41,232 nucleotides of DNA, taken from positions 1 to 41,232 of the IMG/VR virus record IMGVR_UViG_3300045988_082369. One strand, written 5' to 3'. Source of the stretch: a virus. A program made the position numbers and the translations under genes. This document shows positions 17,616-41,223 of this stretch, one piece after another (within the stretch, counting starts at the first letter, position 1; every line of letters begins with the position of its first letter). The notes beneath the pieces are model-generated. The model ran no database searches. It was given only the letters and a program-made list of their open reading frames with translations, and was not told the origin of the DNA.

Positions 17616-17919
17616 CCTCAACCTCTCTGAATTTATCAAGTTTTGCTATAAAATCCTTCACTTCCTCTAAGGAATAGACAACAGCACAAGCAGCCCCTGC
17701 TGACTTCCAACGCCTTAGATTGATAAGTTGTTTCTTGCTAGCTTTATTCCCGTGGTCAGGGGTCTTAACCTCCAGCCTGATGAATCTACCCTTATAACAA
17801 GCAAATATGTCAGCTTTTCCTGAGCTCATTGCTGACCCGTGGGTCTTTTCAGCTTGACAACCGTGCAACCCATTCAAGTAAGCCAATATTGAGGCTACAA
17901 TTGTGGATTCTATTGCCAT
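17602..17919 (-). CDS. VRR-NUC nuclease
   Basis: 105 aa with D...ExK (ADIFACYKGRFIRLEVK). Pairing with SNF2 is typical. Confidence 0.8.
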   Translation of the reverse strand: MAIESTIVASILAYLNGLHGCQAEKTHGSAMSSGKADIFACYKGRFIRLEVKTPDHGNKASKKQLINLRRWKSAGAACAVVYSLEEVKDFIAKLDKFREVEDVRA

Positions 17920-18335
17920 TCTTCGATACCTCTGAGACCTCGCTCAAAATCAAACAGGTCGAATCCAAGCCTTCCCACCCAATACATGTAACCCCTATCG
18001 TGAGAAATTGCTTTATCGTCTATATATAGGTCAGCATACACCTTGCGATTGTCGTTACCTGTTAGGGTCTTAGACTCAATGACATTCTCATTAACTGCGT
18101 TAAACTCTAGTCCGTAGGACTTGCAGAATTCAACTGCTTCTTGTGCAAGGTCATTATCACGACAAGTCCACAAGATAAGTTTAACCCCCATTTTACTGAG
18201 ATTTTTCAGAACCGCTATCATTTGAAGGTTAGGTTCTCCAATCTCAGGATAGTTGTCTTTAACAATTGTGCCGTCAAAATCCACAGCTACAATCTTAGGT
18301 AGACTTGAAAAGTCTGTTGTACGTTGCTCTTGCAT
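17910..18335 (-). CDS. HAD-superfamily phosphatase-like protein
   Basis: DxDGT motif (VAVDFDGTIV) and a distal DD (YIDDKA). Confidence 0.6.
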   Translation of the reverse strand: MQEQRTTDFSSLPKIVAVDFDGTIVKDNYPEIGEPNLQMIAVLKNLSKMGVKLILWTCRDNDLAQEAVEFCKSYGLEFNAVNENVIESKTLTGNDNRKVYADLYIDDKAISHDRGYMYWVGRLGFDLFDFERGLRGIEEWQ

Positions 18336-18714
18336 TGGCTTTTAACTCCCTTCCAATCTGCTCTGTAACCCATACACCTGCCCAACCGTGACTGTCAATA
18401 ATGGCATCCGTTGTCATGTACGGGTACACTTTTTTGTATCTATCAACAATTAAGTCTTTAATTAACTTGATATCTAAAGATGTTTCGAGTTGGATGCTTA
18501 CATTAAATTCTTGTAAAGCCCAACGCTCTATGACATCTTTCATGTCTCGTTTTCTCAATCCAAACAACTTGAGATATTCCCTCAAGACCCTTGAATTGAC
18601 GTAGCAAAAATGGTGTGCCTTTGGCTTATCTCCAGGAAACTTGGAAACGGTCACATATATCTTTGTTTTACACGTCATTTCAGAGAACTCAGGCACAGGT
18701 CTTATCGTACTCAT
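18295..18714 (-). CDS. Hypothetical protein
   Basis: 139-aa ORF. Its ATG overlaps the upstream stop (ATGA). Confidence 0.5.
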   Translation of the reverse strand: MSTIRPVPEFSEMTCKTKIYVTVSKFPGDKPKAHHFCYVNSRVLREYLKLFGLRKRDMKDVIERWALQEFNVSIQLETSLDIKLIKDLIVDRYKKVYPYMTTDAIIDSHGWAGVWVTEQIGRELKANARATYNRLFKST

Positions 18715-19415
18715 TTTGCCTCCGTGTCAGGGCGGTCTAGGAACTTGTCAAGGTCTCTTTGATATAAGTGTAAAGACCCTGCTATATGAGTGTAAGACCC
18801 TATACCAACACCCAATTCCATCGCCATGCGAATCTGAAAACACGTGAAGTTAAACACATCATATGGGAATCCGAACCAAACATCATTACTTCTCATATAA
18901 GTTGTTAAAAACAGCTTGCCCTCACGGATGAAGAACTGAAGACACACAGTGCAAGGTGTATCCTTAGTTTTGTAGTCCATCGGATTTTTAATATGAATTA
19001 CAGCCTGTCTACTGTTAGGGTCAGCCTTGAGAAGATTCTTCACATACTCCCATTGGTCAAACCCATAGAATTTATGTATCTTATGACCGTAATTAGAGTT
19101 GACAACTTCCCCGTCATCACTCATTCTATCCCAAGCCTTAGTGTAATTTTGAATACCTTTAAGGGTATTGTCAGCAGCTAGATACCACATCAACTCACCA
19201 ATCATGTACTTCTTGCTGAGCTTTCTCAAGTCAGATTCAACTATATTGTTTCTAGGGTCATCAATAATTGTGACCGCATTGATAATTTCAGCTGCTACGT
19301 TCCCGTCTCTTGAGGATTGAATATCTTGACCCGTGGACATGTCAAGCAGCATGTGAAACCATGATTCCCAAGCCTCAGTTGCATTATTAACAGTAACTTG
19401 TTTATTAATCAGCAC
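18711..19415 (-). CDS. ThyA-family pyrimidine dNMP hydroxymethylase/methylase (resembles T4 gp42)
   Basis: Aligns without gaps to the ThyA core: PCTVCLQFFIREGKLFLTTYMRSNDVWFGFPYDVFNF. Catalytic Cys155 is at 18951-53. Asp186 (18858-60) sits at the Asn177-equivalent position. Also NSNYG and DPNSRQ as in T4 gp42. GTG start with an AGAGGGGG SD. Confidence 0.8.
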   Translation of the reverse strand: MLINKQVTVNNATEAWESWFHMLLDMSTGQDIQSSRDGNVAAEIINAVTIIDDPRNNIVESDLRKLSKKYMIGELMWYLAADNTLKGIQNYTKAWDRMSDDGEVVNSNYGHKIHKFYGFDQWEYVKNLLKADPNSRQAVIHIKNPMDYKTKDTPCTVCLQFFIREGKLFLTTYMRSNDVWFGFPYDVFNFTCFQIRMAMELGVGIGSYTHIAGSLHLYQRDLDKFLDRPDTEAK

Positions 19416-20298
19416 ACCAGACCCCCTCTACAAAATTCACTTCAATGTTGTTAGTTTTGGCATATTGATACTCTGCCTTAGCCCCCTTGGAACTTTCCCA
19501 GCCAGGCAGCATATAGATAGAGTCGCAAGACTTCAGCAGGTGGAGACAAATAACCATGTAGTCCTCCCAGCCACAGATTTTAGGTAACTCTACATCGGCT
19601 GGATTAACAACAATCCAATCGGGGCACTCAAGTTTAATGCGATTCTCTATTTTTTTGAACCTCTCCTTGAAATCCGTTGTTCCTGTTATTTTCCCACTAA
19701 TATACACACGTTTAGGGGACTTAGGAACGGGGTTTGGTAAATCTTCCCTCTGAGATACTGCTTTTAGCAACATATTCGCCATCATATACGCCACATCTTC
19801 GTAAATCCAATGGCTGCGTTTCCAATCATTTGGGGGCAGTTTTATTGTTAAATCGTAAGAGCACTTGCCATCATTGACCCCCCAACGGTCTATTTCGTTA
19901 GGGTCAGCCTTGAGGTCTCTTTCAACAAGAATTGTGTATATCCAAGTGTTCTTCCCATCTTCGTACTTTTCCCTGAGGTCTTTAAACCTCTTAGGGTCTC
20001 TAACATGATAAAATGTGATATTGAGCCCGTCTCTAGGTCTTAAGATGCTGTCTTCCCAAGTTTTTAAAAGACCCTTAGTCTCCATCCAATCCACAATGTC
20101 TGCCAACAACTTGCGGGTTTCTTCATCTCGGGAATTATCCCAGCCCAGTGTTTTCAAGGCTTGTTTTGCAAGGTCTGACCTGTGGTAGTTGTGAACCTCT
20201 AAATTGAATGTTATTTCATACAAATGTTTAGTCACATGTTTTACAAGAGTATCTTTGCCAACGCCAGATTCTCCGTTGATTAAAAATATTAAATTCAT
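19405..20298 (-). CDS. Fusion of a T4 gp1-like dNMP kinase (aa 1 to about 165) and DUF4406, a nucleoside 2-deoxyribosyltransferase-like domain (aa about 197-297)
   Basis: N-terminus MNLIFLINGESGVGKDT (compare T4 Dnk MKLIFLSGVKRSGKDT). C-terminus VYISGKITG...NPA...W.DYM..CL.LL..CD.IYMLPGWE.S.GA..E matches the DUF4406 pattern. Confidence 0.7.
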   Translation of the reverse strand: MNLIFLINGESGVGKDTLVKHVTKHLYEITFNLEVHNYHRSDLAKQALKTLGWDNSRDEETRKLLADIVDWMETKGLLKTWEDSILRPRDGLNITFYHVRDPKRFKDLREKYEDGKNTWIYTILVERDLKADPNEIDRWGVNDGKCSYDLTIKLPPNDWKRSHWIYEDVAYMMANMLLKAVSQREDLPNPVPKSPKRVYISGKITGTTDFKERFKKIENRIKLECPDWIVVNPADVELPKICGWEDYMVICLHLLKSCDSIYMLPGWESSKGAKAEYQYAKTNNIEVNFVEGVWCAD

Positions 20299-21879
20299 TT
20301 AGCCCTCCTTGATTATCTCTAAGAACTTTTCAACACAGTCTTTTTTCTTCCAATTGCTATTATCAACAACTTGTACATTAAATCCTGCAGTTTTGAACTT
20401 CTCAATGCCACGTTCCATCGTTCGATATTTACCCTCAACTAGGCTTTCATTTATGGCTTTACCACCATTCCGCTTGTATATTCGCTTTATACAAGTTTTT
20501 AGCGGAGGCATAAAGTACAAAATTTTGGTTTTTAAGCCACGTTTTTCTTCCAACTCAGTAAATAGGTCAGCATATGTCCTAAAAATCGTACTTACCACTA
20601 TTCCTTCAAAGATTACGGTGTACTCTGGATAAGCCTTTAGTACATACTTTAGCGACTTGCGAACCGTTGCCCCGTCTTTCAGAGAATCTACACCACCACA
20701 TTTGTTCGAGTATTTACCTAAGGCAACTATTTTGTAATTTGGATATACCGTTGCAATTATTGTGTTCTTGCCGTTTACAGGCTTTTTAACCTCAAACACA
20801 TCAGGGTCTAGTTCTCTAAGCAATATCAATGGTGTGGATTTTCCAGCCCCGTTTGTACCTCTAATGTTTATAATTTGAGTGTGTGCGCTTTTAGCAGATT
20901 TAGCAGTCTCCGCTCCAGTCAGCCCTTGTTCAATAAACATTTTCTTTCTGCCTTTCCTTACACCTGCCCAATCATTGTGCTCACCTAAGAATCTTACATC
21001 AAACAACTTTTCTCTTATGTTAAAAACTTGTTCCCAATCCTTCTGATATTGAGGGAATACTTGTTGATAATTGATAAGTTGTTCTAATTCTCTATCGTGA
21101 TGATATCCTGCATATCTTGAGGATTTAAACAGATTCCTAAAGCTACACAATTTTCCTGCAAACATATTAATGTCGTTGGGTTGCTCTGGGTAAGTTGATG
21201 CTATAACTGTTTGAACCTCTTTTAGCATAGGCTCAAGAAGTTGTCTATGCTCTTCAGAGATTTTACCTGTCTTGTCAAAAATGTTTGCTTCCCCATCTAA
21301 ATACATGAGGTTAAGTAAAGCGGATGTCAGATTACTGCAAGAGTTCCAATCTAACTCTGAAGGCTCAATGAATTTTGTGCCTAAATAGTCATTAAGATAT
21401 AGGATACTCTCCATAAACAATTCTACAGAGAATCTTCCTGTATATCTCAACTTTAACAACCGTCTAAATACTTGATTATAACCCTTCTCATTTTGCTCAA
21501 AATGCTTAAGCCACTTCAAAGGCTTATTGTGGGTTACAGCTTTAAATTGTTGTATTAATTCAACAAACCAATCCATGTTTTTTGCGTATTTTCTTGAGCT
21601 GTTAAACTCCAGAAAAGTTTTGTTATTTTCCCAATAAAACTCCGTATCATCCAATACCTGTTCATGATTATGCCCAAGTATAATACAAGTCAGTTCGTTA
21701 TATGTACACGACATATACCAACACATCCATACAGCCTTATCTTTTGACACTTGGTTTATTTTAATGTATTCGCCTAAGACCCTGAAGTGCAAACTTGGGA
21801 CGGCATGTTGATACTCTACAAACTTCTTTAATCTCCAAGGGTGACCGTAGTCACCCTTGATATTATATAAATCAGCCAT
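20299..21879 (-). CDS. Fusion protein: N-terminal helical domain of about 330 aa (possibly aGPT-Pplase-like) plus a C-terminal P-loop kinase domain (candidate DNA 5-hydroxymethylpyrimidine kinase)
   Basis: Walker A GTNGAGKST at 20833-20859 (aa 341-349). The N-domain shares G.F....LF.[DE] and LLNL motifs with ORF 31034-32035. The ATG at 21879 overlaps the upstream stop (TAATG). Function is inferred. Confidence 0.5.
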   Translation of the reverse strand: MADLYNIKGDYGHPWRLKKFVEYQHAVPSLHFRVLGEYIKINQVSKDKAVWMCWYMSCTYNELTCIILGHNHEQVLDDTEFYWENNKTFLEFNSSRKYAKNMDWFVELIQQFKAVTHNKPLKWLKHFEQNEKGYNQVFRRLLKLRYTGRFSVELFMESILYLNDYLGTKFIEPSELDWNSCSNLTSALLNLMYLDGEANIFDKTGKISEEHRQLLEPMLKEVQTVIASTYPEQPNDINMFAGKLCSFRNLFKSSRYAGYHHDRELEQLINYQQVFPQYQKDWEQVFNIREKLFDVRFLGEHNDWAGVRKGRKKMFIEQGLTGAETAKSAKSAHTQIINIRGTNGAGKSTPLILLRELDPDVFEVKKPVNGKNTIIATVYPNYKIVALGKYSNKCGGVDSLKDGATVRKSLKYVLKAYPEYTVIFEGIVVSTIFRTYADLFTELEEKRGLKTKILYFMPPLKTCIKRIYKRNGGKAINESLVEGKYRTMERGIEKFKTAGFNVQVVDNSNWKKKDCVEKFLEIIKEG

Positions 21880-22514
21880 TATTCTTCGTCCCAATCGTCC
21901 CAATCATCGTCATCATCTTCATCCTCAGGTTCAGGCTCAGCCTTCTTTTTGGACTTAGTTGACTTTTTGGATTTAGGTTCAGACTTCTTGGATTTAGTTG
22001 ACTTCTTAGACTTCTTTGGCGGTTCTTCTTCTTCCTCCTCGTCATCATCTTCATCATCCTCGTCCTCAAGCTCATCTTCATCCTCATCATCTTCGTCATC
22101 GTCATCTTCATCAATGTCGTCCTCATCGCCTGTGATAGCAGCTCCAACCTTGCGGGTCTCAGCAACTCTTGCTCTGTCCTTACCCTCATACTCCTCGTAC
22201 TTAACAGTTAGCTCAAGGGTCTTGCCTTCCATCTTGTCAAGGTCAATCTGAACTCTGCCATCAGCCTTCATTCCAATAGCCTCAAGTAGACCCTTCAGTT
22301 TCCACAAAGCAGTGTCAATTAGAGGGTAGTTCTCAATAACCTTGCAGCCCTTAGAAGCACCAGCAATAACAACAAATGTTACCTTGAACATATCGTTACC
22401 GCCCTGTGATACGGTCTCCTCAATCTTCTCAATCTTAACCTTGTGAACTCCTTCAGCAGGCATGTTAAAGGTCTCAACTCCAGTAAAATCCAACTTCATC
22501 TTTCTCTTTGCCAT
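21879..22514 (-). CDS. DUF669-type putative ssDNA-binding protein with a long charged tail
   Basis: N-terminal DUF669-like core next to a Sak4-like gene. Tail of D/E runs, a KSKKSTKSKK duplication, and terminal DDDWDDWDEE. Confidence 0.65.
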   Translation of the reverse strand: MAKRKMKLDFTGVETFNMPAEGVHKVKIEKIEETVSQGGNDMFKVTFVVIAGASKGCKVIENYPLIDTALWKLKGLLEAIGMKADGRVQIDLDKMEGKTLELTVKYEEYEGKDRARVAETRKVGAAITGDEDDIDEDDDDEDDEDEDELEDEDDEDDDEEEEEEPPKKSKKSTKSKKSEPKSKKSTKSKKKAEPEPEDEDDDDDWDDWDEE

Positions 22515-29737: not shown

Positions 29738-30229
29738 TTACCTCTCTACGTCTATATATCGCCAGTCATCAACGTGCGTGACCTTAACATTACCCTCGTC
29801 AAATATACGTTCAGTCTCCTGTGATATAACCTGACCTCTGCCATAATACACGTGCTTTATACCTGCGGTCACAATTGCTCTAGCACAGGCTTCACAAGGG
29901 TATCGGGTCACGATGATTGTTGACCTTGATATCTGAATCCCGAACTTAGCTGCGGTTGCGATAGCATCAATCTCAGCATGGACTGCCCTGCAATCGGAAG
30001 GCAATCTGTGTTCCTTGCTGTCTTCTCCATACAGCTCAACTCGATGACACCCTGAGACCTTGCAAGTTTTTGGAATAGTTCTATTTACACCATAAATCTC
30101 GTGAATTGATTGCTTAGAGCTTTTAGGCTGAACAATTACACAGCCAACAGCAACTTTTACGCAACCTGAGGTGTCATCTGCGTGAGATTGAGCACGGTCT
30201 AAAAATTCAATAACTTCATCTTTTTTCAC
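29738..30229 (-). CDS. dCMP deaminase (ComEB/T4 Cd-like)
   Basis: Zinc motifs VHAEIDAI and RYPCEACARAI. Confidence 0.9.
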   Translation of the reverse strand: MKKDEVIEFLDRAQSHADDTSGCVKVAVGCVIVQPKSSKQSIHEIYGVNRTIPKTCKVSGCHRVELYGEDSKEHRLPSDCRAVHAEIDAIATAAKFGIQISRSTIIVTRYPCEACARAIVTAGIKHVYYGRGQVISQETERIFDEGNVKVTHVDDWRYIDVER

Positions 30230-30702: not shown

Positions 30703-31047
30703 TTACCTCCCAAAATTCTCATCAGCTTTAACAATATACGTTCCGTTATCTGCCCTAACTTGCTCAGGGCTAGCAATTATCACAACCGTTCCAGCCTTTA
30801 TGACCCCTTTGTCGGTCACAACATCCTCTTCATAGACCACGGCAGATGGGTGTGGCTTAGCTGCCACGTAGTTATCTATCGAGGAATGGCTGTATGACCT
30901 ATACTCTTTAATCACCATTTTTTGATGGCTAATTCCCTTTTTCTGGTGTTTAATCACGCAGGTTGAGTAAAGGAGCAGCAGCTCTAAAATAATTGCCGTA
31001 ATAGCCAAAATAAAGGCTATAAGCTGTACACGTTTAATCTCTTTCAT
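30703..31047 (-). CDS. Membrane-anchored hypothetical protein
   Basis: AAGGAGG SD 6 nt before the ATG at 31047. N-terminal TM helix (LIAFILAITAIILELLLLY). Confidence 0.55.
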   Translation of the reverse strand: MKEIKRVQLIAFILAITAIILELLLLYSTCVIKHQKKGISHQKMVIKEYRSYSHSSIDNYVAAKPHPSAVVYEEDVVTDKGVIKAGTVVIIASPEQVRADNGTYIVKADENFGR

Positions 31048-32035
31048 CAGATTCCTCCTTAAATGGCTTATAAGTGTTCTTTGGTTTTCCCAGCCCGTAG
31101 TAGGCTTTGTAGTATTTTTGTAACTCACAGAAACAGTTCTCCAGCGACATCACGTTCATCTTTTGGTCGTACTCAGGAAGGTCTGTAAATATCTTGGAAA
31201 AATCAAGTTCTTTGTTAATTACATCTACCAACCAAAACAAGCACTCTTCATAGTTTAAACCTCCTTTGCTTGTAAATAACAAGTTTAACCCAGCTTTACA
31301 TCCAGGACCAGCTACAACAAAAGAGTTTTCACTTACAGGAAACTCTGGAATATAGGTAAAGTCTACAAACAATTGATACCCCATAAAAGCTCCAATGCCT
31401 TCGAATTTCTTAAGGGTTTGATATACCTGATAACCTCCACCAGTAATGTGCTTAGGAGACAACTTTTGGAGTGACCTATGCTCAATTAAGTGCTTTATAA
31501 GCCATAGCACTCTCATAGGCACGCAATCCTCTCCTTCGCAATATCGCTCTAGCCCCATTTTCAATCCTGAAGTATAAAACACATTGGTGAAGTATAGATG
31601 ATCAGAGTCACTACACAATTCTCGATACTCCTCAGGGTCGAAATTCTTAGTGAATTTAATTGGCAGCCCCAATTTCTCTGCAGTTTGGTGTCGGTTGAAT
31701 AGCCTAAACATAACTGTATTGAGCAGCTTATCTCGATAAGACAGCTCAGGGTTTGTTGAAATATGCTCTATCAACCACTTAGATTCTCTGTCGTGTTCTC
31801 TCCGTATGTTAGTGAACCTCCAATGTTGTAAGACAGGGTCATCTGTCCACGGCTGTGACTCTCCTGCCTCTTTCGCCAGTCTAATGGCGTACCTCTCCTG
31901 AATATAGTATAGAAGCATTCTGTACACGTCCATGTCTAATTGTGGACAATCAGACCTTATTTTGTCTACGTTCACCAGTCGTGAACAGAATACATCCCCA
32001 CTCTTGTTTTGCAATAGTTGTGCCCTCCTTAACAT
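31034..32035 (-). CDS. Candidate DNA base-hypermodification transferase (aGPT-Pplase-like). Start is ATG 32035 or SD-backed TTG 32014.
   Basis: Motifs ERYAIRLAKEAGESQPWTDDPVLQHWRFTNIRREHDRESKW and FEGIGAFMGYQLFVD. The family assignment is from memory of that family's pattern. AAGGAGGG (32023-32030) lies 8 nt before the TTG at 32014. Confidence 0.5.
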   Translation of the reverse strand: MLRRAQLLQNKSGDVFCSRLVNVDKIRSDCPQLDMDVYRMLLYYIQERYAIRLAKEAGESQPWTDDPVLQHWRFTNIRREHDRESKWLIEHISTNPELSYRDKLLNTVMFRLFNRHQTAEKLGLPIKFTKNFDPEEYRELCSDSDHLYFTNVFYTSGLKMGLERYCEGEDCVPMRVLWLIKHLIEHRSLQKLSPKHITGGGYQVYQTLKKFEGIGAFMGYQLFVDFTYIPEFPVSENSFVVAGPGCKAGLNLLFTSKGGLNYEECLFWLVDVINKELDFSKIFTDLPEYDQKMNVMSLENCFCELQKYYKAYYGLGKPKNTYKPFKEESDERD

Positions 32036-33972: not shown

Positions 33973-34263
33973 TTATCTGTAGATGTTCTCAAATGCCCAT
34001 CTAATTGCATGACCCTCGTCCTCAAATAGCTGTGGTGAGATTTTCTCCATCACTACCGTCTCATAATCCAACACTTGGTATACCGCTACAAATACGTTGT
34101 TTCCTGACATCTCTCCAGCATATCCTGCAACTATTAGCAAGTCACCATACGGTATAACCTTATCCCAATTGTTTTCTAAGTAAGACATTGAAGTCTCAAC
34201 TGGCATCTTAAGTTCTCTAGCTCTTTTCTCAGTTGTTAGATTAGTAGTGTAATTATTTTCCAT
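33973..34263 (-). CDS. Acidic early protein, paralogue of 33498-33782
   Basis: GAGGAGG SD 5 nt before the ATG at 34263. The track start at 34281 is a TTG. Confidence 0.6.
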   Translation of the reverse strand: MENNYTTNLTTEKRARELKMPVETSMSYLENNWDKVIPYGDLLIVAGYAGEMSGNNVFVAVYQVLDYETVVMEKISPQLFEDEGHAIRWAFENIYR

Positions 34264-34306
34264 GTCGTCCTCCTCAAGCAATCTTGTTAAGTGTCTTATG
34301 GTTAGT

Positions 34307-36285: not shown

Positions 36286-36368
36286 GTTATCCTCCTGTGT
36301 AGTTTTATGTGTAGTTTTATGCGATATTTTGGTTAGTTAATGTTGTATTTTGTATTGGATTTATGTCT

Positions 36369-36397
36369 ATTATATACTCAGTTTTGTGAAAAGTAAA
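36369..36397 (-). promoter_or_regulatory. SigmaA-type promoter P6 (leftmost early promoter at the hub)
   Basis: On the minus strand: TTTACT, 17 bp, TATAAT. The 5' UTR contains a 12-bp tandem repeat (36297-36320). Confidence 0.6.
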
Positions 36398-36683
36398 GTG
36401 GTAAAGTGAAAAATAATAAAAATGGGAGGTGGGGTGAAAAATTTCTCGAGCGGAGGGGGTGGGGTGACTAGGTCTTTTTAGGTGCGGGAAGGTGTTGTAA
36501 AATTTTCGTGAGGCGAGGAGAAGGGGAGGTGAGCTGGGTTAGGAGGTGGGTGAGGGGTAAAAAGTGTCTTAAAACGCAAATATTTAGGTTTTATTGGGTA
36601 TATTTTAAATCTCTATTTGGTTTTAGGGGATTCTAGGCGGATTTTATGGTGAGCGAGGATAGGGTGAGGAGGAGAAAATGGGG

Positions 36684-36711
36684 TATATATAATATATATA
36701 TATTATATATA
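36684..36711. repeat. Perfect 28-bp AT palindrome flanked by G runs
   Basis: TATATATAATATATATATATTATATATA equals its own reverse complement. GGG lies on both flanks. Confidence 0.9.
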
Positions 36712-36826
36712 GGGTTGTGAGGAGAGGAGGTGTGACCTACAAGTTTTGCTCGTAAATCGGGGGTAAATCTTGGATGAATTTGCGTGTTTATTGAGTGTGG
36801 AATTCGTGAAAATTAAAAAAAGGGTT

Positions 36827-37280
36827 AAAAATAGGTAAGATTTATTGTGGCGGGGGAGGGGTTATTGGATGTGTTTACCTAATTTATTTCGTAAAAATAG
36901 GTAAATTTTTGCAAGATGAAATTTAAAATTAGGTTGTGGAAAAAAAGAATTCGGGAGAATTCTGGAGAAAATCTTGTACCTTTTTTCCTTTATTTACCTA
37001 TTTTTAAATATTTTATTATATATATATAAATATATAGTATATAGAGAATATAGGATATACAAGATATATAATAACGTAATATATATAAAAGAAGTTTTTT
37101 AAAATTAGGTAAAATCGTGGTTCGGCAATCTTGATAAAATTTGCATAGCGAAAAAATTTAACACATAGCCTAATTTTAGGATTTTGCGATTTTTATTGTG
37201 GCGAGTTACCTAATTTTACGCCTAATTTTAGGTTAAAAATAGGTCTTATTGTGCGAAATGTCCCTATTTTTACCTAATTT
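36827..37280. repeat. Array of at least 11 iterons, AAAAT(A/T)AGGTAA / TTACCTA(A/T)TTT, in both orientations
   Basis: TAGGT/ACCTA cores at about 36832, 36877, 36898, 36930, 36996, 37106, 37169, 37208, 37229, 37240 and 37272. Three copies are followed by TTATTGTG(G)CG. Confidence 0.8.
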
Positions 37281-37372
37281 CATTTCTAAAAAAGTAAAAG
37301 TGCGTAGAAGTGGACATTTTCTCGCTTTTTCGTTAATTATCGTGCGGATTCGCATGTTATTAAATTTCAGGG

Positions 37373-37401
37373 TTTACGGCAGATATTATATATAATATAA
37401 T
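37373..37401 (+). promoter_or_regulatory. Rightward sigmaA-type promoter of the same family, upstream of terS
   Basis: AGGGTTTACG, 17 bp, TATAAT on the plus strand. Spacer and -10 overlap the 37380-37406 palindrome. Confidence 0.5.
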
Positions 37402-37406
37402 ATCTG
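37380..37406. repeat. 27-bp palindrome (12-bp arms, 3-nt centre); candidate operator
   Basis: CAGATATTATAT-ATA-ATATAATATCTG. The arms are exact reverse complements. Confidence 0.85.
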
Positions 37407-37529
37407 AGATGAAATTAGTTATAGATTCTTGTGCGTACACAACGAGCCTGCAAAATCTTGGAAAATTCATCTTGTAAATTGTTGTGGACGCTTGTAAGCT
37501 CGTTGTAAACAAGTTATTGTGGAGAGGAT

Positions 37530-38150
37530 GTGAGATTATTGAGGAGAGCCAAGAGGCTTTGTGGAATACGGAACTGGGCTGTGGACTTCTCAGGGGTCAA
37601 GTCCAATCGCAAAGTTGTGTATAAGTTGAAGAGAACTGGATTATTCCAACAAGCTGAAGAGGTCAGAGTGTTATGTGAGGAATATCTGGATTCTTGTTGG
37701 ACACCCAAGGTGTATAAGGGTCGAGCAGTGACGGGAGTTGATGGGAAGATTGTGAAGACACAAACATCACCATACACTGTTGCGGGTCTAGCAAGGTACT
37801 TGGGCATGTGCACAGACACCTTCAACAAGTATTGTTCAGGGGTCATGGACAACTACGAAGATGAGGGAGAAACAATTAGCAGTGTGCTCAACTATTATAA
37901 ACAAGCAATCGAGGTCTATGCAGAAGAGCGATTGTATGACAAAGAAGGCTTCAACGGGGCTAGGTTTGTGCTTGACCATTACTTCAAGAAACTTAGTACC
38001 AAGGAGATGTATGAAATCCATCAGATACAGAAACAGCTGGAATTCAAGGAACGAGAGCTGCGAATCAAGGAGGAACTGATGGATGTAGGAGGGTCTGAAG
38101 ACACTGACATTCAGGTCACTATCCTCCGTAAGAGCAAGGAAGGTGTGTAA
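37530..38150 (+). CDS. terS: Terminase small subunit
   Basis: Pattern ...CEEYLDSC....PYTVAGLARYLGMCTDTFNKY....AIEVYAEERLYDKEGFNGARFVL is typical of small terminases. Lies upstream of terL. Start uncertain (GTG 37530 or TTG 37539). Confidence 0.7.
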   Translation: MRLLRRAKRLCGIRNWAVDFSGVKSNRKVVYKLKRTGLFQQAEEVRVLCEEYLDSCWTPKVYKGRAVTGVDGKIVKTQTSPYTVAGLARYLGMCTDTFNKYCSGVMDNYEDEGETISSVLNYYKQAIEVYAEERLYDKEGFNGARFVLDHYFKKLSTKEMYEIHQIQKQLEFKERELRIKEELMDVGGSEDTDIQVTILRKSKEGV

Positions 38151-38373: not shown

Positions 38374-39684
38374 ATGAATATAACCAAAGAGGTGAACCCA
38401 AGGTTTGAAAATTTCATATTCAACTGGGACTATAAGCAGTACCTCTTGTTGGGAGGTTACGGAAGCAGTAAGAGCTATCATATAGGACTCAAGTTGATAT
38501 TGAAGTTACTACAAGAGAAAAGAAAAGCCCTTGTTGTACGTGAGGTCTATGACTCGATACGTGACAGCTGCTTTGACCTGCTGGAAGAGATTTTGAATGA
38601 CTTAGGGCTGCTGGCTGATGAGGGCTTAAGGTTCAGCAAGACTAAGGTTGTAAGCAGGATAAGTCCAATGCAATTCACCTTCCCTAACGGGTCTAAGATT
38701 ATATTCAAGGGCATGGATAAGCCTAAGAAGTTGAAATCTATCAACGGAGTATCCATTATATGGGTTGAAGAGGCATCAGAGGTCAAGTATGAAGGCTACA
38801 AAGAGTTGTTGGGACGATTGAGAGACCCTAACCACAGCAGGCATATCATACTGAGCTGGAATCCTGTTGGAGAGGAGAACTGGACATTCAAGCACTTCTT
38901 CATTGACAGAGAGCAGGAACGTACCGTGCTAGACCCTGAGGTGTTGTACAAGCACAAGACGTTGGTCAAGAATGGTATATACTATCATCACAGCTTGCCC
39001 AAAGACAACTTGTATCTACCTCAGGACTATCTTGATGAGTTACAAGGCATGAAGGAGTACGACCCTGACTTGTACAGAGTTGCTTGGTTGGGCAAGTACG
39101 GAATCAGTGGGCTGAAGGTTCTACCGCAAGTTGTAAGGATGCCTCACGAGATTGTAATTAAACAAGCTCAGGCGTGCAGTAACGATAACCACTACACAGG
39201 GATGGACTTTGGATTCGAGGTCTCATATAACGCAGTCCTCAGGATGGCAGTTGACCCTGTTGAGAAGATTCTGTATGTATACGATGAATACTACAAGAAT
39301 AAGATGACTGATGTTGAGACGGCAGATGAGCTGGAAGAACTCGGATACAAGGAAGATGACATAGTTGCGGACAGCGCAGAGCCTAAGGCAATAAGATACT
39401 ACCAGCTGAGAGGGTTCAACATGCGACCTTGCAAGAAATCTGCTGGGTCTAGGCTAGAGAACACGAGGAAGTGCAAGAGGTTCAAGAGGATAGTTATCAG
39501 CAGTAAGTGTAAGAATACTTGGAGAGAGCTGAAAGACTTGACGTATAAAGAAGATGCCAACGGCAATCGCAAGTATGATGAATTTAACATTGACCCTCAC
39601 ACATTCTCGGCTATGTGGTATGGCTTGGACTTGTGTGATGTAGTTGATATAAAGTATGAAAGGCACAGCAAAAGAGGAGGTTAA
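38374..39684 (+). CDS. terL: Terminase large subunit (PBSX/Terminase_3-like)
   Basis: NPRFENFIFNWDYKQYLLLGGYGSSKS (Walker A) and a C-terminal nuclease region. GAGGAGG SD. Confidence 0.95.
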   Translation: MNITKEVNPRFENFIFNWDYKQYLLLGGYGSSKSYHIGLKLILKLLQEKRKALVVREVYDSIRDSCFDLLEEILNDLGLLADEGLRFSKTKVVSRISPMQFTFPNGSKIIFKGMDKPKKLKSINGVSIIWVEEASEVKYEGYKELLGRLRDPNHSRHIILSWNPVGEENWTFKHFFIDREQERTVLDPEVLYKHKTLVKNGIYYHHSLPKDNLYLPQDYLDELQGMKEYDPDLYRVAWLGKYGISGLKVLPQVVRMPHEIVIKQAQACSNDNHYTGMDFGFEVSYNAVLRMAVDPVEKILYVYDEYYKNKMTDVETADELEELGYKEDDIVADSAEPKAIRYYQLRGFNMRPCKKSAGSRLENTRKCKRFKRIVISSKCKNTWRELKDLTYKEDANGNRKYDEFNIDPHTFSAMWYGLDLCDVVDIKYERHSKRGG

Positions 39685-39687
39685 ACC

Positions 39688-41223
39688 ATGAACAACATAA
39701 CAATTGAAGAGAGGGTGTTAACCCCTCAGTACAAGAACTTTAATGTGGCGAGGAGTCTAATTCAGACAGAGTTGGAGGGTCTATTTGGTACGAATACCTT
39801 GAGAGACCTGAAGGACATCTTGAGCTTGTACAATGTCTACGAGAACGGTGCTGATTTTACCCCTGAGACTAACGGTGATTATGTACCGTCAACTCACAAG
39901 TACAAGCACATCAAGAGTCTTATTGATAAAGAAGCAAGATTTTTGTTTTCCGTTCCGCCTGTTATAACGATTCATCCAGTCGAGGAACGGGAGGAACTAG
40001 AACCACTCACGCAGGAGACGCAATATTTGGTCGATACGGTGTTTAAATCTAATCACGTGAGTAGTAAGCTGGTGAGGACAGCTAAGGACTGTCTAATCGG
40101 TAAAAGAGTTGCATTAGCGGTGGACTTCAATGAGCAGGGTATTCAGCTATCATTTATGCCTTCCCTCGAATTTATATACGAGACAGACCCTACGAACGTA
40201 GATAAGATGACTAAGTTCATCAGGTTCTACAGCACGGTGGTGAATGACGACAAGTCGCAACAGAGAGTATATAAGAAGAAGTGGGAACTCAATGAGAAGG
40301 GTTACTGTGAAATCACAGAAGAACTTTATGACGGTAGCGGAAATCTTGTTGAGACTATCAGTGAACCGTTTGAGACGGGATTTACCTATATACCTGTATG
40401 GGTCGTAATCAATGGAGGACTTATTGGTGACCCGTTCGGAACTTCCGATGTGGAAGAACTCGCTGACGATGAGAGCTGGTATAGCAGGCTCGGAGGTAAG
40501 GATATGGACAGCTTGCGTAAGGGGGCTGACCAGATTATATGGGCAATGGATGTTCATCCTAAGTCCACAAAGAACTTGTCGAGGGCTGCGGGAGCATTTT
40601 GGGATTTATCAACAGACCCAGCTTCACCTGAGGGTACTAAAGGAGGGGTTGGAGTGCTTGATAATGACATGAGCTATTCTGCTGCTATGGACATGACCTT
40701 GAAGAGGTTAAGAGCTTCAATGTATTCCAATCTCGATATTCCTGACACGACAAGTGAGGCACTCACGGGCATTGTGTCCTCAGGAAAGACTATGGAGGCT
40801 ATTTATTGGGGGTTAATGGTACGATGTGACGAAAAGTTACTGGACTGGATACCAGCCCTAGAGGGTCTTGTAAGATGTATTGTTGAGGGTTGTCGCTTGT
40901 ACCCTGACAGCAAGAAGGTCTACACAGATGCAGAATTGTTGGAGGAGTTTAGTGTTGATATTGAAAACACGTATCCAATCTTGAAGGACGAGACTGAGCA
41001 GAAGGCTACCAACATCTCAGAGGTCAACAATAAGGTTATGAGTCGCAGAACTTACATGAAGAAGTGGAGAGGAATGACAGATGACCAGATAACTGCTGAG
41101 CTTAAGGATATAGCGGAAGAACAGCAGCTGCTTGAGGGTGACAACTATCTAGCTGATGTGAAGGGTCTATTTGGTAAGGTAGCAGATGAAGGCGGTGAAG
41201 ATGATGAAGGCACAGGAGAGTAG
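39688..41223 (+). CDS. Portal protein (SPP1 gp6-like)
   Basis: 511-aa ORF directly after terL with an acidic C-terminus. Order terL-portal-MuF. Confidence 0.9.
   Translation: MNNITIEERVLTPQYKNFNVARSLIQTELEGLFGTNTLRDLKDILSLYNVYENGADFTPETNGDYVPSTHKYKHIKSLIDKEARFLFSVPPVITIHPVEEREELEPLTQETQYLVDTVFKSNHVSSKLVRTAKDCLIGKRVALAVDFNEQGIQLSFMPSLEFIYETDPTNVDKMTKFIRFYSTVVNDDKSQQRVYKKKWELNEKGYCEITEELYDGSGNLVETISEPFETGFTYIPVWVVINGGLIGDPFGTSDVEELADDESWYSRLGGKDMDSLRKGADQIIWAMDVHPKSTKNLSRAAGAFWDLSTDPASPEGTKGGVGVLDNDMSYSAAMDMTLKRLRASMYSNLDIPDTTSEALTGIVSSGKTMEAIYWGLMVRCDEKLLDWIPALEGLVRCIVEGCRLYPDSKKVYTDAELLEEFSVDIENTYPILKDETEQKATNISEVNNKVMSRRTYMKKWRGMTDDQITAELKDIAEEQQLLEGDNYLADVKGLFGKVADEGGEDDEGTGE

Follow-up and report, generated by a model that had tools for sequence, protein, structure and literature searches.

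The virus record IMGVR_UViG_3300045988_082369, whose 41,232 nucleotides are referred to here as the window, encodes at 18711-19415 a protein of the thymidylate synthase fold, called Thy in the following. Thy is very probably a dCMP 5-hydroxymethylase of the T4 gp42 type, with its catalysis predicted from sequence, and it is encoded beside a DNA nucleobase kinase of the 5-HMUDK family, which, like the AADT transferases, is described in the literature only for 5-hydroxymethyluracil (5hmU). This combination of a cytosine-class Thy (Asp-type, after its residue 186) with a 5-HMUDK-type kinase is common in metagenomes. The phage has either an undescribed kinase-dependent hypermodification of cytosine or an undescribed deamination route to hydroxymethyluracil. 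We tentatively propose that a large uncultured clade of tailed phages of ~40-55 kb introduces 5-hydroxymethylcytosine (5hmC) by means of a T4-type enzyme, and that a kinase of the 5-HMUDK family, together with a divergent AADT-like domain, then phosphorylates and substitutes the hydroxymethyl group of the cytosine.

Thy was read as an open reading frame (ORF) of 234 amino acids with a GTG start, which matches Thymidylat_synt of Pfam (PF00303) with an E-value of 1.4e-27 and 97 bits (cut-off 24.3). The JGI gene call gives 213 residues starting at Met22 (P0127) and other callers give 234 (P0121); going by the alignment we prefer the longer form, because residues 1-21 are conserved among the homologues. 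An earlier reading of the window from its letters and ORFs (the sequence-only reading) had claimed a core without gaps against E. coli ThyA and an Asp in place of Asn177. Both are borne out. In a MAFFT alignment PCTVCLQFFIREGKLFLTTYMRSNDVWFGFPYDVFNF (37 residues, PCTVCLQFF...PYDVFNF) pairs with ThyA 145-181 without a gap, and the same stretch is ungapped in the HMMER alignment to the thymidylate synthase 6auj, which has the identical local sequence to ThyA. The E. coli ThyA reference sequence possesses C146 and N177, as expected, and the alignment together with a check of the GAT codon places Asp186 in the column of Asn177.

The T4 enzyme gp42 (NMRSNDVVFGFRNDYAW) carries Asp in this column as had been stated, and so does MilA (YMRANDAFRGAVSDVFSF), and in an alignment with T4 gp42, SPO1 gp29 and ThyA the window enzyme shares this residue with the Asp enzymes. 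Asn occupies the position in SPO1 gp29, SP10 gp188, LysYB1, CBA120 orf073 (ViI-like) and M6 gp58, so that Asn and not Asp is found in the enzymes of every known 5-HMUDK phage checked. The residue would say little if characterised dUMP hydroxymethylases carried Asp as well; SPO1 gp29, which is characterised, has Asn. That Asp accompanies cytosine and Asn uracil was stated as a rule for MilA, BcmA and the T4 dCMP hydroxymethylase (CH) compared to thymidylate synthase and the SPO1 dUMP hydroxymethylase (PMC5175136), and it rests on mutagenesis papers from 1992 as cited in a passage of PMC8670742. Mutagenesis and structural work links Asp to the recognition of cytosine (PMC5175136; PMC6400193; PMC8670742).

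The prediction of a cytosine substrate is upheld by this rule, by two co-varying positions and by relatives encoded beside a beta-glucosyltransferase. The two positions are Ser107 (T4 Ser94) and Met174, the latter in front of the RS-x-D motif, and their co-variation with Asp186 is perfect. With regard to the sugar, Ser176 and Arg136 are the residues that prefer deoxyribose and indicate a deoxyribose substrate, whereas the ribose-type pair Ala176 and Lys133 of MilA and BcmA is absent from Thy. Asp152, three residues before Cys155, corresponds to T4 Asp145 and is present in every aligned hydroxymethylase but absent from ThyA. The C-terminal tail that closes over the folate in thymidylate synthases is lacking, as in the T4 enzyme, and the protein ends 16 residues past Tyr218. 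Both features fit a hydroxymethylase. The water-network residues of the T4 type are in place (Ser107, Tyr109 and Asp152 for T4 Ser94, Tyr96 and Asp145), and E74, C155, R175, S176, D178, H216 and Y218 are conserved in the Thy alignments. The best match in the PDB is the CMP hydroxymethylase MilA (3e-31), above every ThyA entry, and the ThyA equivalogs of NCBIfam reach 84 bits at best compared to cut-offs of 108-576, i.e. Thy scores below the canonical ThyA level. The helical C-terminal extension of dUMP hydroxymethylases (total length ~340-430 residues) is absent from the 234 residues of Thy.

To place these residues in a wider context IMG/VR was scanned with the Thy protein and, separately, with an alignment of the kinase domain. 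The Thy scan returned 20 loci with 53-97% identity, all of them Asp-type (20/20), and in 15 of the 20 the kinase or its N-domain lies within 10 kb in conserved synteny. The kinase scan returned 80 loci. About half possess a short Asp-type Thy, mostly 0.3-2.5 kb downstream of the kinase, and the remaining loci (SP10-like, ViI-like, M6-like) a long Asn-type Thy. Ser107, Met174 and Asp186 occur together in 77 of 77 Asp-type loci (53 distinct sequences). The corresponding residues in 40 of 40 Asn-type loci are Ala or Gly, then Asn, Cys, Gln or Thr, then Asn, and among these 77 and 40 loci there is no mixed signature. Asp186 is kept in 53/53 distinct sequences of the Asp class, including T4 gp42 and relatives from cultured phages. 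Given this three-position signature throughout the clade, Asp186 is no chance substitution. Counting distinct enzymes, the fetched locus includes a 5-HMUDK-type kinase for 37 of 53 in the Asp class and for 35 of 36 in the Asn class; PhiW-14 was left unscored, its Thy gene being outside the 45-kb stretch fetched. The conflict between the enzyme and its neighbours noticed in the sequence-only reading is therefore real, as Asp-type Thy stands beside 5-HMUDK across a clade. A large protein collection contains 1,856 homologues of the Thy protein.

Cultured relatives of the Asp type with 37-44% identity are encoded beside a beta-glucosyltransferase. In Lactobacillus phage ATCCB (44%) the genes after Thy encode a beta-glucosyltransferase and a UDP-galactopyranose mutase; in the VPE25-like Enterococcus phage nattely (38%, with a PYDIF motif) Thy is found two genes from the beta-glucosyltransferase. 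The DNA of VPE25 and VFW is resistant to bisulfite (PMC4999554), which indicates that the cytosines of these phages are modified. Between Thy and the beta-glucosyltransferase nattely also encodes gp052 (L143:6851-7267), which resembles a dUTPase by eye and could be a dCTPase; an equivalent was not seen in the window.

A further hint arises from the gene directly upstream of Thy (19405-20298), which overlaps the Thy start by 11 nt. Its product combines a P-loop domain resembling deoxynucleoside monophosphate (dNMP) kinases with DUF4406. The kinase family of the window (c14) adjoins Thy in 29 Asp-type loci and in no Asn-type locus. If a second family of small dNMP kinases (c21) is added, such a gene is found directly upstream of an Asp-type Thy in 47 loci, compared to 0/40 Asn-type loci. 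In ATCCB and nattely, too, the gene that immediately precedes Thy is matched by the hidden Markov model (HMM) of c21, at 3e-18 and 6e-9 respectively. T4 gp1 is the precedent for a dedicated kinase in a route via 5-hydroxymethyl-dCMP (hm-dCMP), and a dedicated kinase upstream of Asp-type Thy is what such a route needs. For the route via 5-hydroxymethyl-dUMP (hm-dUMP) the dNMP kinases of the host are assumed to be sufficient (PMC13458397). That the kinase paired with Thy is shared with beta-glucosyltransferase phages, among which VPE25 is cytosine-modified, favours 5hmC entering the DNA and being phosphorylated there.

A PDB sequence search with the dNMP-kinase/DUF4406 protein gave no significant match. 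The fusion occurs only in the subclade of the window. PHROGs labels DUF4406 as nucleoside 2-deoxyribosyltransferase, a superfamily that counts MilB, an hmCMP glycosidase, and DNPH1/Rcl among its members. The fused DUF4406 might destroy a canonical dNMP.

The neighbouring kinase named in the sequence-only reading is confirmed as the C-terminal part of a 534-residue protein (20299-21903), which carries the 5-hydroxymethyldeoxyuridine (5-hmdU) DNA kinase domain PF18748 at residues 335-502 (1.7e-28, 99.9 bits, cut-off 27). This domain is ~40% identical to SP10 gp186 and to the LysYB1 kinase, and most of the DNA kinases associated with Asp-type Thy fall into a single clade, whose sister is the SP10/LysYB1 group. 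The Pplase-like gene, likewise named before, is HMUDK_hel at 31034-32035 (PF18723, 201.5 bits), a family which we regard as the former aGPT-Pplase clade 1. Beyond what had been noticed, the 334 N-terminal residues of the kinase protein (N-domain) form a second, divergent candidate of the AADT type.

The N-domain has no Pfam match of its own in the window and 272 homologues in the large protein collection. In most relatives it is a separate gene, and in the window it is fused to the kinase. Its LysYB1 homologue matches PF18724 ADDT ("Amino acid:DNA transferase") at 8.8e-5, below the cut-off. An ORF of 279 residues from IMG/VR (L100:7608-8444) matches both the N-domain HMM (4e-25) and the aGPT-Pplase2 HMM (1.6e-5), and so links the two families. 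The AF2 model of the N-domain is all-alpha (pLDDT 84.5). With this model Foldseek found the helix-hairpin-helix glycosylases AGOG and EndoIII as best, weak matches in the PDB, and no Pplase2 structure. Cys253 is the sole Cys conserved across the wider family; it is located in a helix (GKLCSFRNLFK), and its motif is similar to those around the Cys of Pplase1 and Pplase2. BLASTP of the N-domain against M6 gp51 and against the HMUDK_hel protein of the window returned nothing. Comparing the families with hhalign gave E-values of 0.0012 to HMUDK_hel and 0.017 to Pplase2, a test of low power, because the known relationship of Pplase1 and Pplase2 scores equally badly. Taken from sequence and model, this suggests that the N-domain may be a divergent AADT-like transferase.

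The N-domain family is present in 46/54 Asp-type loci compared to 2/40 Asn-type loci, and none of the Asp-type loci yielded a canonical Pplase2. Together with the separate kinase clade this distribution is compatible with a changed target base. In the sister contig IMGVR_UViG_3300045988_074612 the neighbouring proteins are 94-99% identical and the kinase domain 93%, but the N-domain only ~30-49% (window 20902-21903 compared to L009:7639-9117 and L029). Judged by these identities the N-domain of the sister phage looks like a recently swapped putative transferase cassette, and its divergence fits a swappable cassette that sets specificity.

A related observation concerns clade members without the DNA kinase. 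In the gene order DUF669 - X - small kinase - Thy their slot X holds another enzyme, namely a TET-associated-type glycosyltransferase (TAGT; 39-46 bits, cut-off 27.5), with or without a radical SAM/SPASM protein, or a SAM methyltransferase. The nucleotide core is constant, and the post-replicative module on it is interchangeable. We considered the TAGT genes of these sister phages as a marker of 5hmC and rejected them, since recent work suggests 5hmU as the product of most phage 5mYOX systems, the commonest glycosyltransferase partners. In two further loci (L048:7417-9045 and L060:6426-7457) an extra gene is inserted between DUF669 and the N-domain; the one in L048 encodes a fusion of an Fe-alcohol-dehydrogenase-like and a HAD domain. 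The inserted gene may make a small-molecule donor for the modification.

The proposed pathway would proceed as follows. Thy would transfer the methylene group of methylene-tetrahydrofolate to C5 of dCMP, and hydration would yield hm-dCMP. The translationally coupled dNMP kinase would convert this to hm-dCDP on the way to hm-dCTP, from which the phage polymerase could place 5hmC in the DNA. After replication the kinase domain of the 534-residue protein would phosphorylate the hydroxymethyl group of 5hmC, and the cysteine of the AADT-like N-domain might displace the phosphate and attach a nucleophile. The outcome would be a kinase-dependent hypermodification of cytosine, with the dCMP deaminase in a T4-like role, supplying dUMP for the thymidylate synthase of the host. 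The whole chain, in which 5hmC is incorporated and serves as kinase substrate, we regard as possible rather than probable. Phosphorylation of 5hmC by such kinases has been proposed as plausible in print (PMC8256090).

Several observations weigh against this chain. Every characterised 5-HMUDK/AADT system acts on 5hmU, and the commercial 5-HMUDK leaves 5hmC DNA unphosphorylated (PMC6457204). A search for specificity columns in the kinase alignment found no polar switch between Asp-associated and Asn-associated kinases. At least two Asp-type phages (L116 and L020) carry kinases of other 5-HMUDK lineages, which a single DNA substrate common to all would explain more easily. Lysinibacillus phage LysYB1, with an Asn-type Thy, has the closest cultured relatives of both the N-domain and the kinase (~40% identity). 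Conservation in the clade extends to HMUDK_hel, a protein otherwise only known from hmU systems. The deaminase, too, belongs to the core genes of the clade: with a single exception, every locus that reaches this far has it just upstream of the primase. Finally, no dCTPase-like enzyme (MazG, dUTPase, HD) was found among the window ORFs, so that replacement of cytosine would be only partial.

These points are largely what speaks for the first alternative, according to which the phage deaminase converts hm-dCMP to hm-dUMP, which is phosphorylated and then built into the DNA instead of T, and the kinase and AADT-like module acts on 5hmU as in M6, ViI and SP10. The sequence-only reading had named this deamination and a downstream machinery acting on 5hmC as the two possibilities, and we consider them the right pair. 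The sole Thy homologue is of the cytosine class, and neither a dUMP hydroxymethylase nor a T-dioxygenase as source of 5-hmdU was met in the window, nor did a TET/JBP domain turn up in the Pfam scans of its ORFs; 5-hmdU could then arise only via the deaminase. The enzyme is of the nucleotide-level dCMP type, with S. mutans, T4 and PBCV-1 dCMP deaminases as PDB matches, and a human dCMP deaminase, DCTD, turns hm-dCMP into hm-dUMP (PMC12386326). HMUDK_hel is located two genes upstream of it in the window and in most loci of the clade, including loci without the kinase. All tested kinases and transferases have hmU specificity, several kinase lineages are attached to Asp-type phages, the kinase alignment lacks a polar switch, and LysYB1 has N-domain, kinase and HMUDK_hel alongside a Thy of the Asn type.

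Deamination is nevertheless a roundabout route. The deaminase is 10 kb from Thy, in the replication module like generic phage dCMP deaminases, and phages of the T4 type and with carbamoyl-hmC carry a dCMP deaminase too. The dNMP kinase coupled to Thy is restricted to the Asp type and shared with beta-glucosyltransferase phages, and it would be needless if hm-dUMP were the committed intermediate. A dTTPase or dUTPase was not found in the window; the missing dCTPase, dTTPase and dUTPase together do not discriminate between 5hmC and 5hmU. The HAD phosphatase encoded near Thy has homologues in the hmU phages SPO1, SP8 and CP-51 and in ViI-like phages, yet the family extends to Listeria, Enterococcus and crAss-like phages, in which we know of no hmU; it was rejected as a marker of thymine replacement for this reason. 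The deaminase either supplies dUMP or shunts hm-dCMP to hm-dUMP, and on balance we consider the second role unlikely. If true, it would represent a new pre-replicative route to 5-hmdU which bypasses dUMP and avoids competition with the ThyA of the host.

Somewhat more doubtful is a modification of both pyrimidines, in which hm-dCMP is divided between the kinase (5hmC) and the deaminase (hm-dUMP, 5hmU) and the DNA kinase and transferase elaborate one or both. The enzymes for both branches are present, the idea reconciles a nucleotide module of the cytosine type with a DNA module of the uracil type, and dNMP kinases of the T4 gp1 type accept hm-dCMP and dTMP-like substrates. It is the least parsimonious explanation, no direct evidence was found for it, and to our knowledge it has no precedent.

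That Asp186 is uninformative and Thy an ordinary dUMP hydroxymethylase of the standard 5-hmdU pathway appears very improbable. The gene context is the standard one, T4 CH has a trace of dUMP activity, and the closest cultured homologue is annotated as deoxyuridylate hydroxymethyltransferase, but this annotation is automatic. Three independent cytosine-class positions are strictly kept in a clade reaching down to 53% identity, the dUMP hydroxymethylases examined have Asn and a C-terminal extension of ~110-190 residues while the window enzyme has neither, and its relatives work in cytosine-modifying phages. A dCMP methyltransferase making 5-methyl-dCMP, as in phage XP-12, is hardly credible: Asp would be expected at the N177 position of dCMP methylases too, and N229D/N177D mutants of thymidylate synthase methylate dCMP according to a citation within PMC8670742, but Asp152, Ser107 and the absent C-terminal tail match hydroxymethylases in the comparison with these and ThyA, and the clade-wide link to a kinase or glycosyltransferase requires a hydroxyl group.

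In the literature we found no coupling of a cytosine-class Thy with 5-HMUDK, no 5-phosphomethyl-cytosine (5-PmdC) and no deamination of hm-dCMP by a phage. The earlier remark that machinery acting on 5hmC had not been described holds in so far as we found no report of a 5hmC DNA kinase; the idea itself is already in print as speculation, since Burke 2021 floated a P-loop kinase phosphorylating 5hmC for TET-containing metavirome contigs (PMC8256090). Hypermodifications of phage DNA decide which restriction and CRISPR enzymes cut, and they are a source of reagents such as 5-HMUDK and the glucosyltransferases. As all described kinase/AADT pathways start from 5-hmdU, a thymidylate synthase found with 5-HMUDK is annotated as thymine hypermodification; yet the window and 37 distinct relatives show that, of the 5-HMUDK loci which the kinase query drew from IMG/VR, about half are coupled to a cytosine-class hydroxymethylase. 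If the chemistry reaches 5hmC, it would be the first kinase-dependent route, via 5-phosphomethyl-cytosine, to hypermodified cytosine. Base adducts of a new kind would follow, epigenomic labelling might gain a DNA kinase specific for 5hmC, and type IV restriction would have new targets. The swapping of cassettes between near-identical phages would then imply several different cytosine adducts. Otherwise 5-hmdUTP would be reached in these phages by a second route that does not pass through dUMP. In both cases the annotation of such clusters changes.

The remaining features are collected in the table. The window resembles a complete or nearly complete genome of a tailed phage. ORFs up to ~16.2 kb are on the plus strand and were mostly outside the scans; the minus strand between 16.2 and 36.3 kb forms a module for replication and nucleotide metabolism. 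A megablast of 6 kb around the Thy gene against 50,697 phage records had zero matches, i.e. there is no close cultured relative. Two sister contigs in IMG/VR encode proteins 94-99% identical to those of the window. HMUDK_hel, the deaminase and Nmad4 are located 10-15 kb beyond the 534-residue protein, and Nmad4 turned up in no locus apart from the window and these two contigs. In nearly every locus of the clade Thy is directly followed by the protein orf139 (its cluster c2 is present in 48/54 Asp-type loci), which has the invariant residues W65, F70, W111 and W115. This protein has no Pfam, PDB or NCBIfam match even with a family of 28 members, and two homologues in a word-indexed protein database. 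The HAD-type phosphatase is possibly a nucleotidase.

Features of the window and alternative enzymes in related loci
Feature	Position	Strand	Family or match
Small HAD-type phosphatase, BT0820 family	17910..18335	-	NCBIfam NF046079 7e-33 (below cut-off), PHROG 1238
orf139, conserved	18295..18714	-	cluster c2
Thymidylate-synthase-fold enzyme (Thy), read as dCMP 5-hydroxymethylase, T4 gp42 type	18711..19415	-	PF00303
Asp186 codon (GAT)	18858..18860	-	E. coli ThyA Asn177, T4 gp42 Asp179, MilA Asp186
Catalytic Cys155 codon	18951-18953	-	
P-loop dNMP-kinase-like domain (residues ~1-190) fused to DUF4406, 297 aa; proposed hm-dCMP kinase	19405..20298	-	DUF4406 1.3e-25, PHROG 355
5-HMUDK-type P-loop DNA nucleobase kinase, C-terminal domain	20299..20901	-	PF18748 HMUDK_HMUD1
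N-terminal domain, all-alpha, distantly AADT/aGPT-Pplase2-like; proposed group transferase	20902..21903	-	
dCMP deaminase, nucleotide-level ComEB / T4 Cd type	29738..30229	-	Pfam dCMP_cyt_deam_1 6e-15
HMUDK_hel protein, 333 aa, conserved C-terminal E..CE..K motif	31034..32035	-	PF18723 2.4e-59, 201.5 bits
Nmad4 (nucleotide modification associated domain 4) protein	33973..34281	-	PF18756 6.2e-12
Small terminase subunit	37530-38150		GP3_package
Large terminase	38374-39684		
Portal, SPP1-type	39688-41223		
Alternative-slot loci of related phages	L117:18596-20588, L122:15630-17737, L128:16787-17761, L140:17500-18375		

The region 36300-37500 is poor in ORFs and is located between divergent transcription units, with a sharp change of the GC skew. 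It contains a TTACCTAATTT / TAAAAATAGGTAA motif in at least eight copies, which occur in both orientations, as well as AT-rich palindromes, and is probably an origin or operator region. The DUF669 protein (21879-22514) has a C-terminal tail of low complexity, with runs of Asp/Glu followed by Lys/Ser-rich repeats, which gives rise to several spurious overlapping ORFs. In one related locus (L128:9956-12824) the gene of a family A DNA polymerase is split by an ORF of 150 residues, possibly an intron or homing element.

Among known systems, T4 gp42 (PDB 1B5E family) has the same short thymidylate synthase fold without the C-terminal tail, and shares the Cys, the Glu, the Arg-Ser-x-Asp motif, the Asp at the N177 position, Ser94-Tyr96 (NSNYG identical) and Asp145; in T4, too, the hydroxymethylase is paired with a dedicated dNMP kinase and a dCMP deaminase. 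The identity is ~29%, and T4 has glucosyltransferases and a dCTPase where the window has a nucleobase kinase and the AADT-like domain, with no dCTPase found. MilA of mildiomycin biosynthesis (PDB 5B6D) shares even the numbering of Cys155, Asp186, His216 and Tyr218, but possesses the ribose-favouring Ala176 and Lys133 and serves antibiotic biosynthesis instead of DNA modification. The Firmicutes phages with Thy and a beta-glucosyltransferase (VPE25, VFW, nattely, ATCCB) share the Asp-type enzyme and the homologous small kinase upstream, and differ in having a glucosyltransferase downstream instead of kinase and transferase.

The enzymes of SPO1 (gp29), SP10 (gp188), M6 (gp58) and the ViI type belong to the same superfamily, with Asp three residues before the Cys and the partnership with 5-HMUDK in common. 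They differ in that Asn occupies the N177 position, Ala or Gly stands for T4 Ser94 and Asn, Cys, Gln or Thr for Met174, and they possess a C-terminal extension of roughly 110-190 residues that is absent in the window. The 5-hmdU systems as a whole (M6, ViI, PaMx11, SP10, PhiW-14, SH-Ab 15599) likewise possess a kinase above the Pfam cut-off, HMUDK_hel and a dCMP deaminase, and the same layout of a pre-replicative hydroxymethylase followed by a post-replicative kinase and transferase. The window deviates from them by its cytosine-class Thy, by the divergent N-domain family in place of Pplase2, and in that no dTTPase or dUTPase was found. For the clusters of C5-methyltransferase and TET (5mYOX) with a P-loop kinase (Burke 2021) a 5-HMUDK-like kinase was suggested to act on 5hmC, the sole suggestion of this kind that we found in print; later work argues for 5hmU as the product of most such dioxygenases, and any 5hmC there would be made after replication by the methyltransferase and TET.

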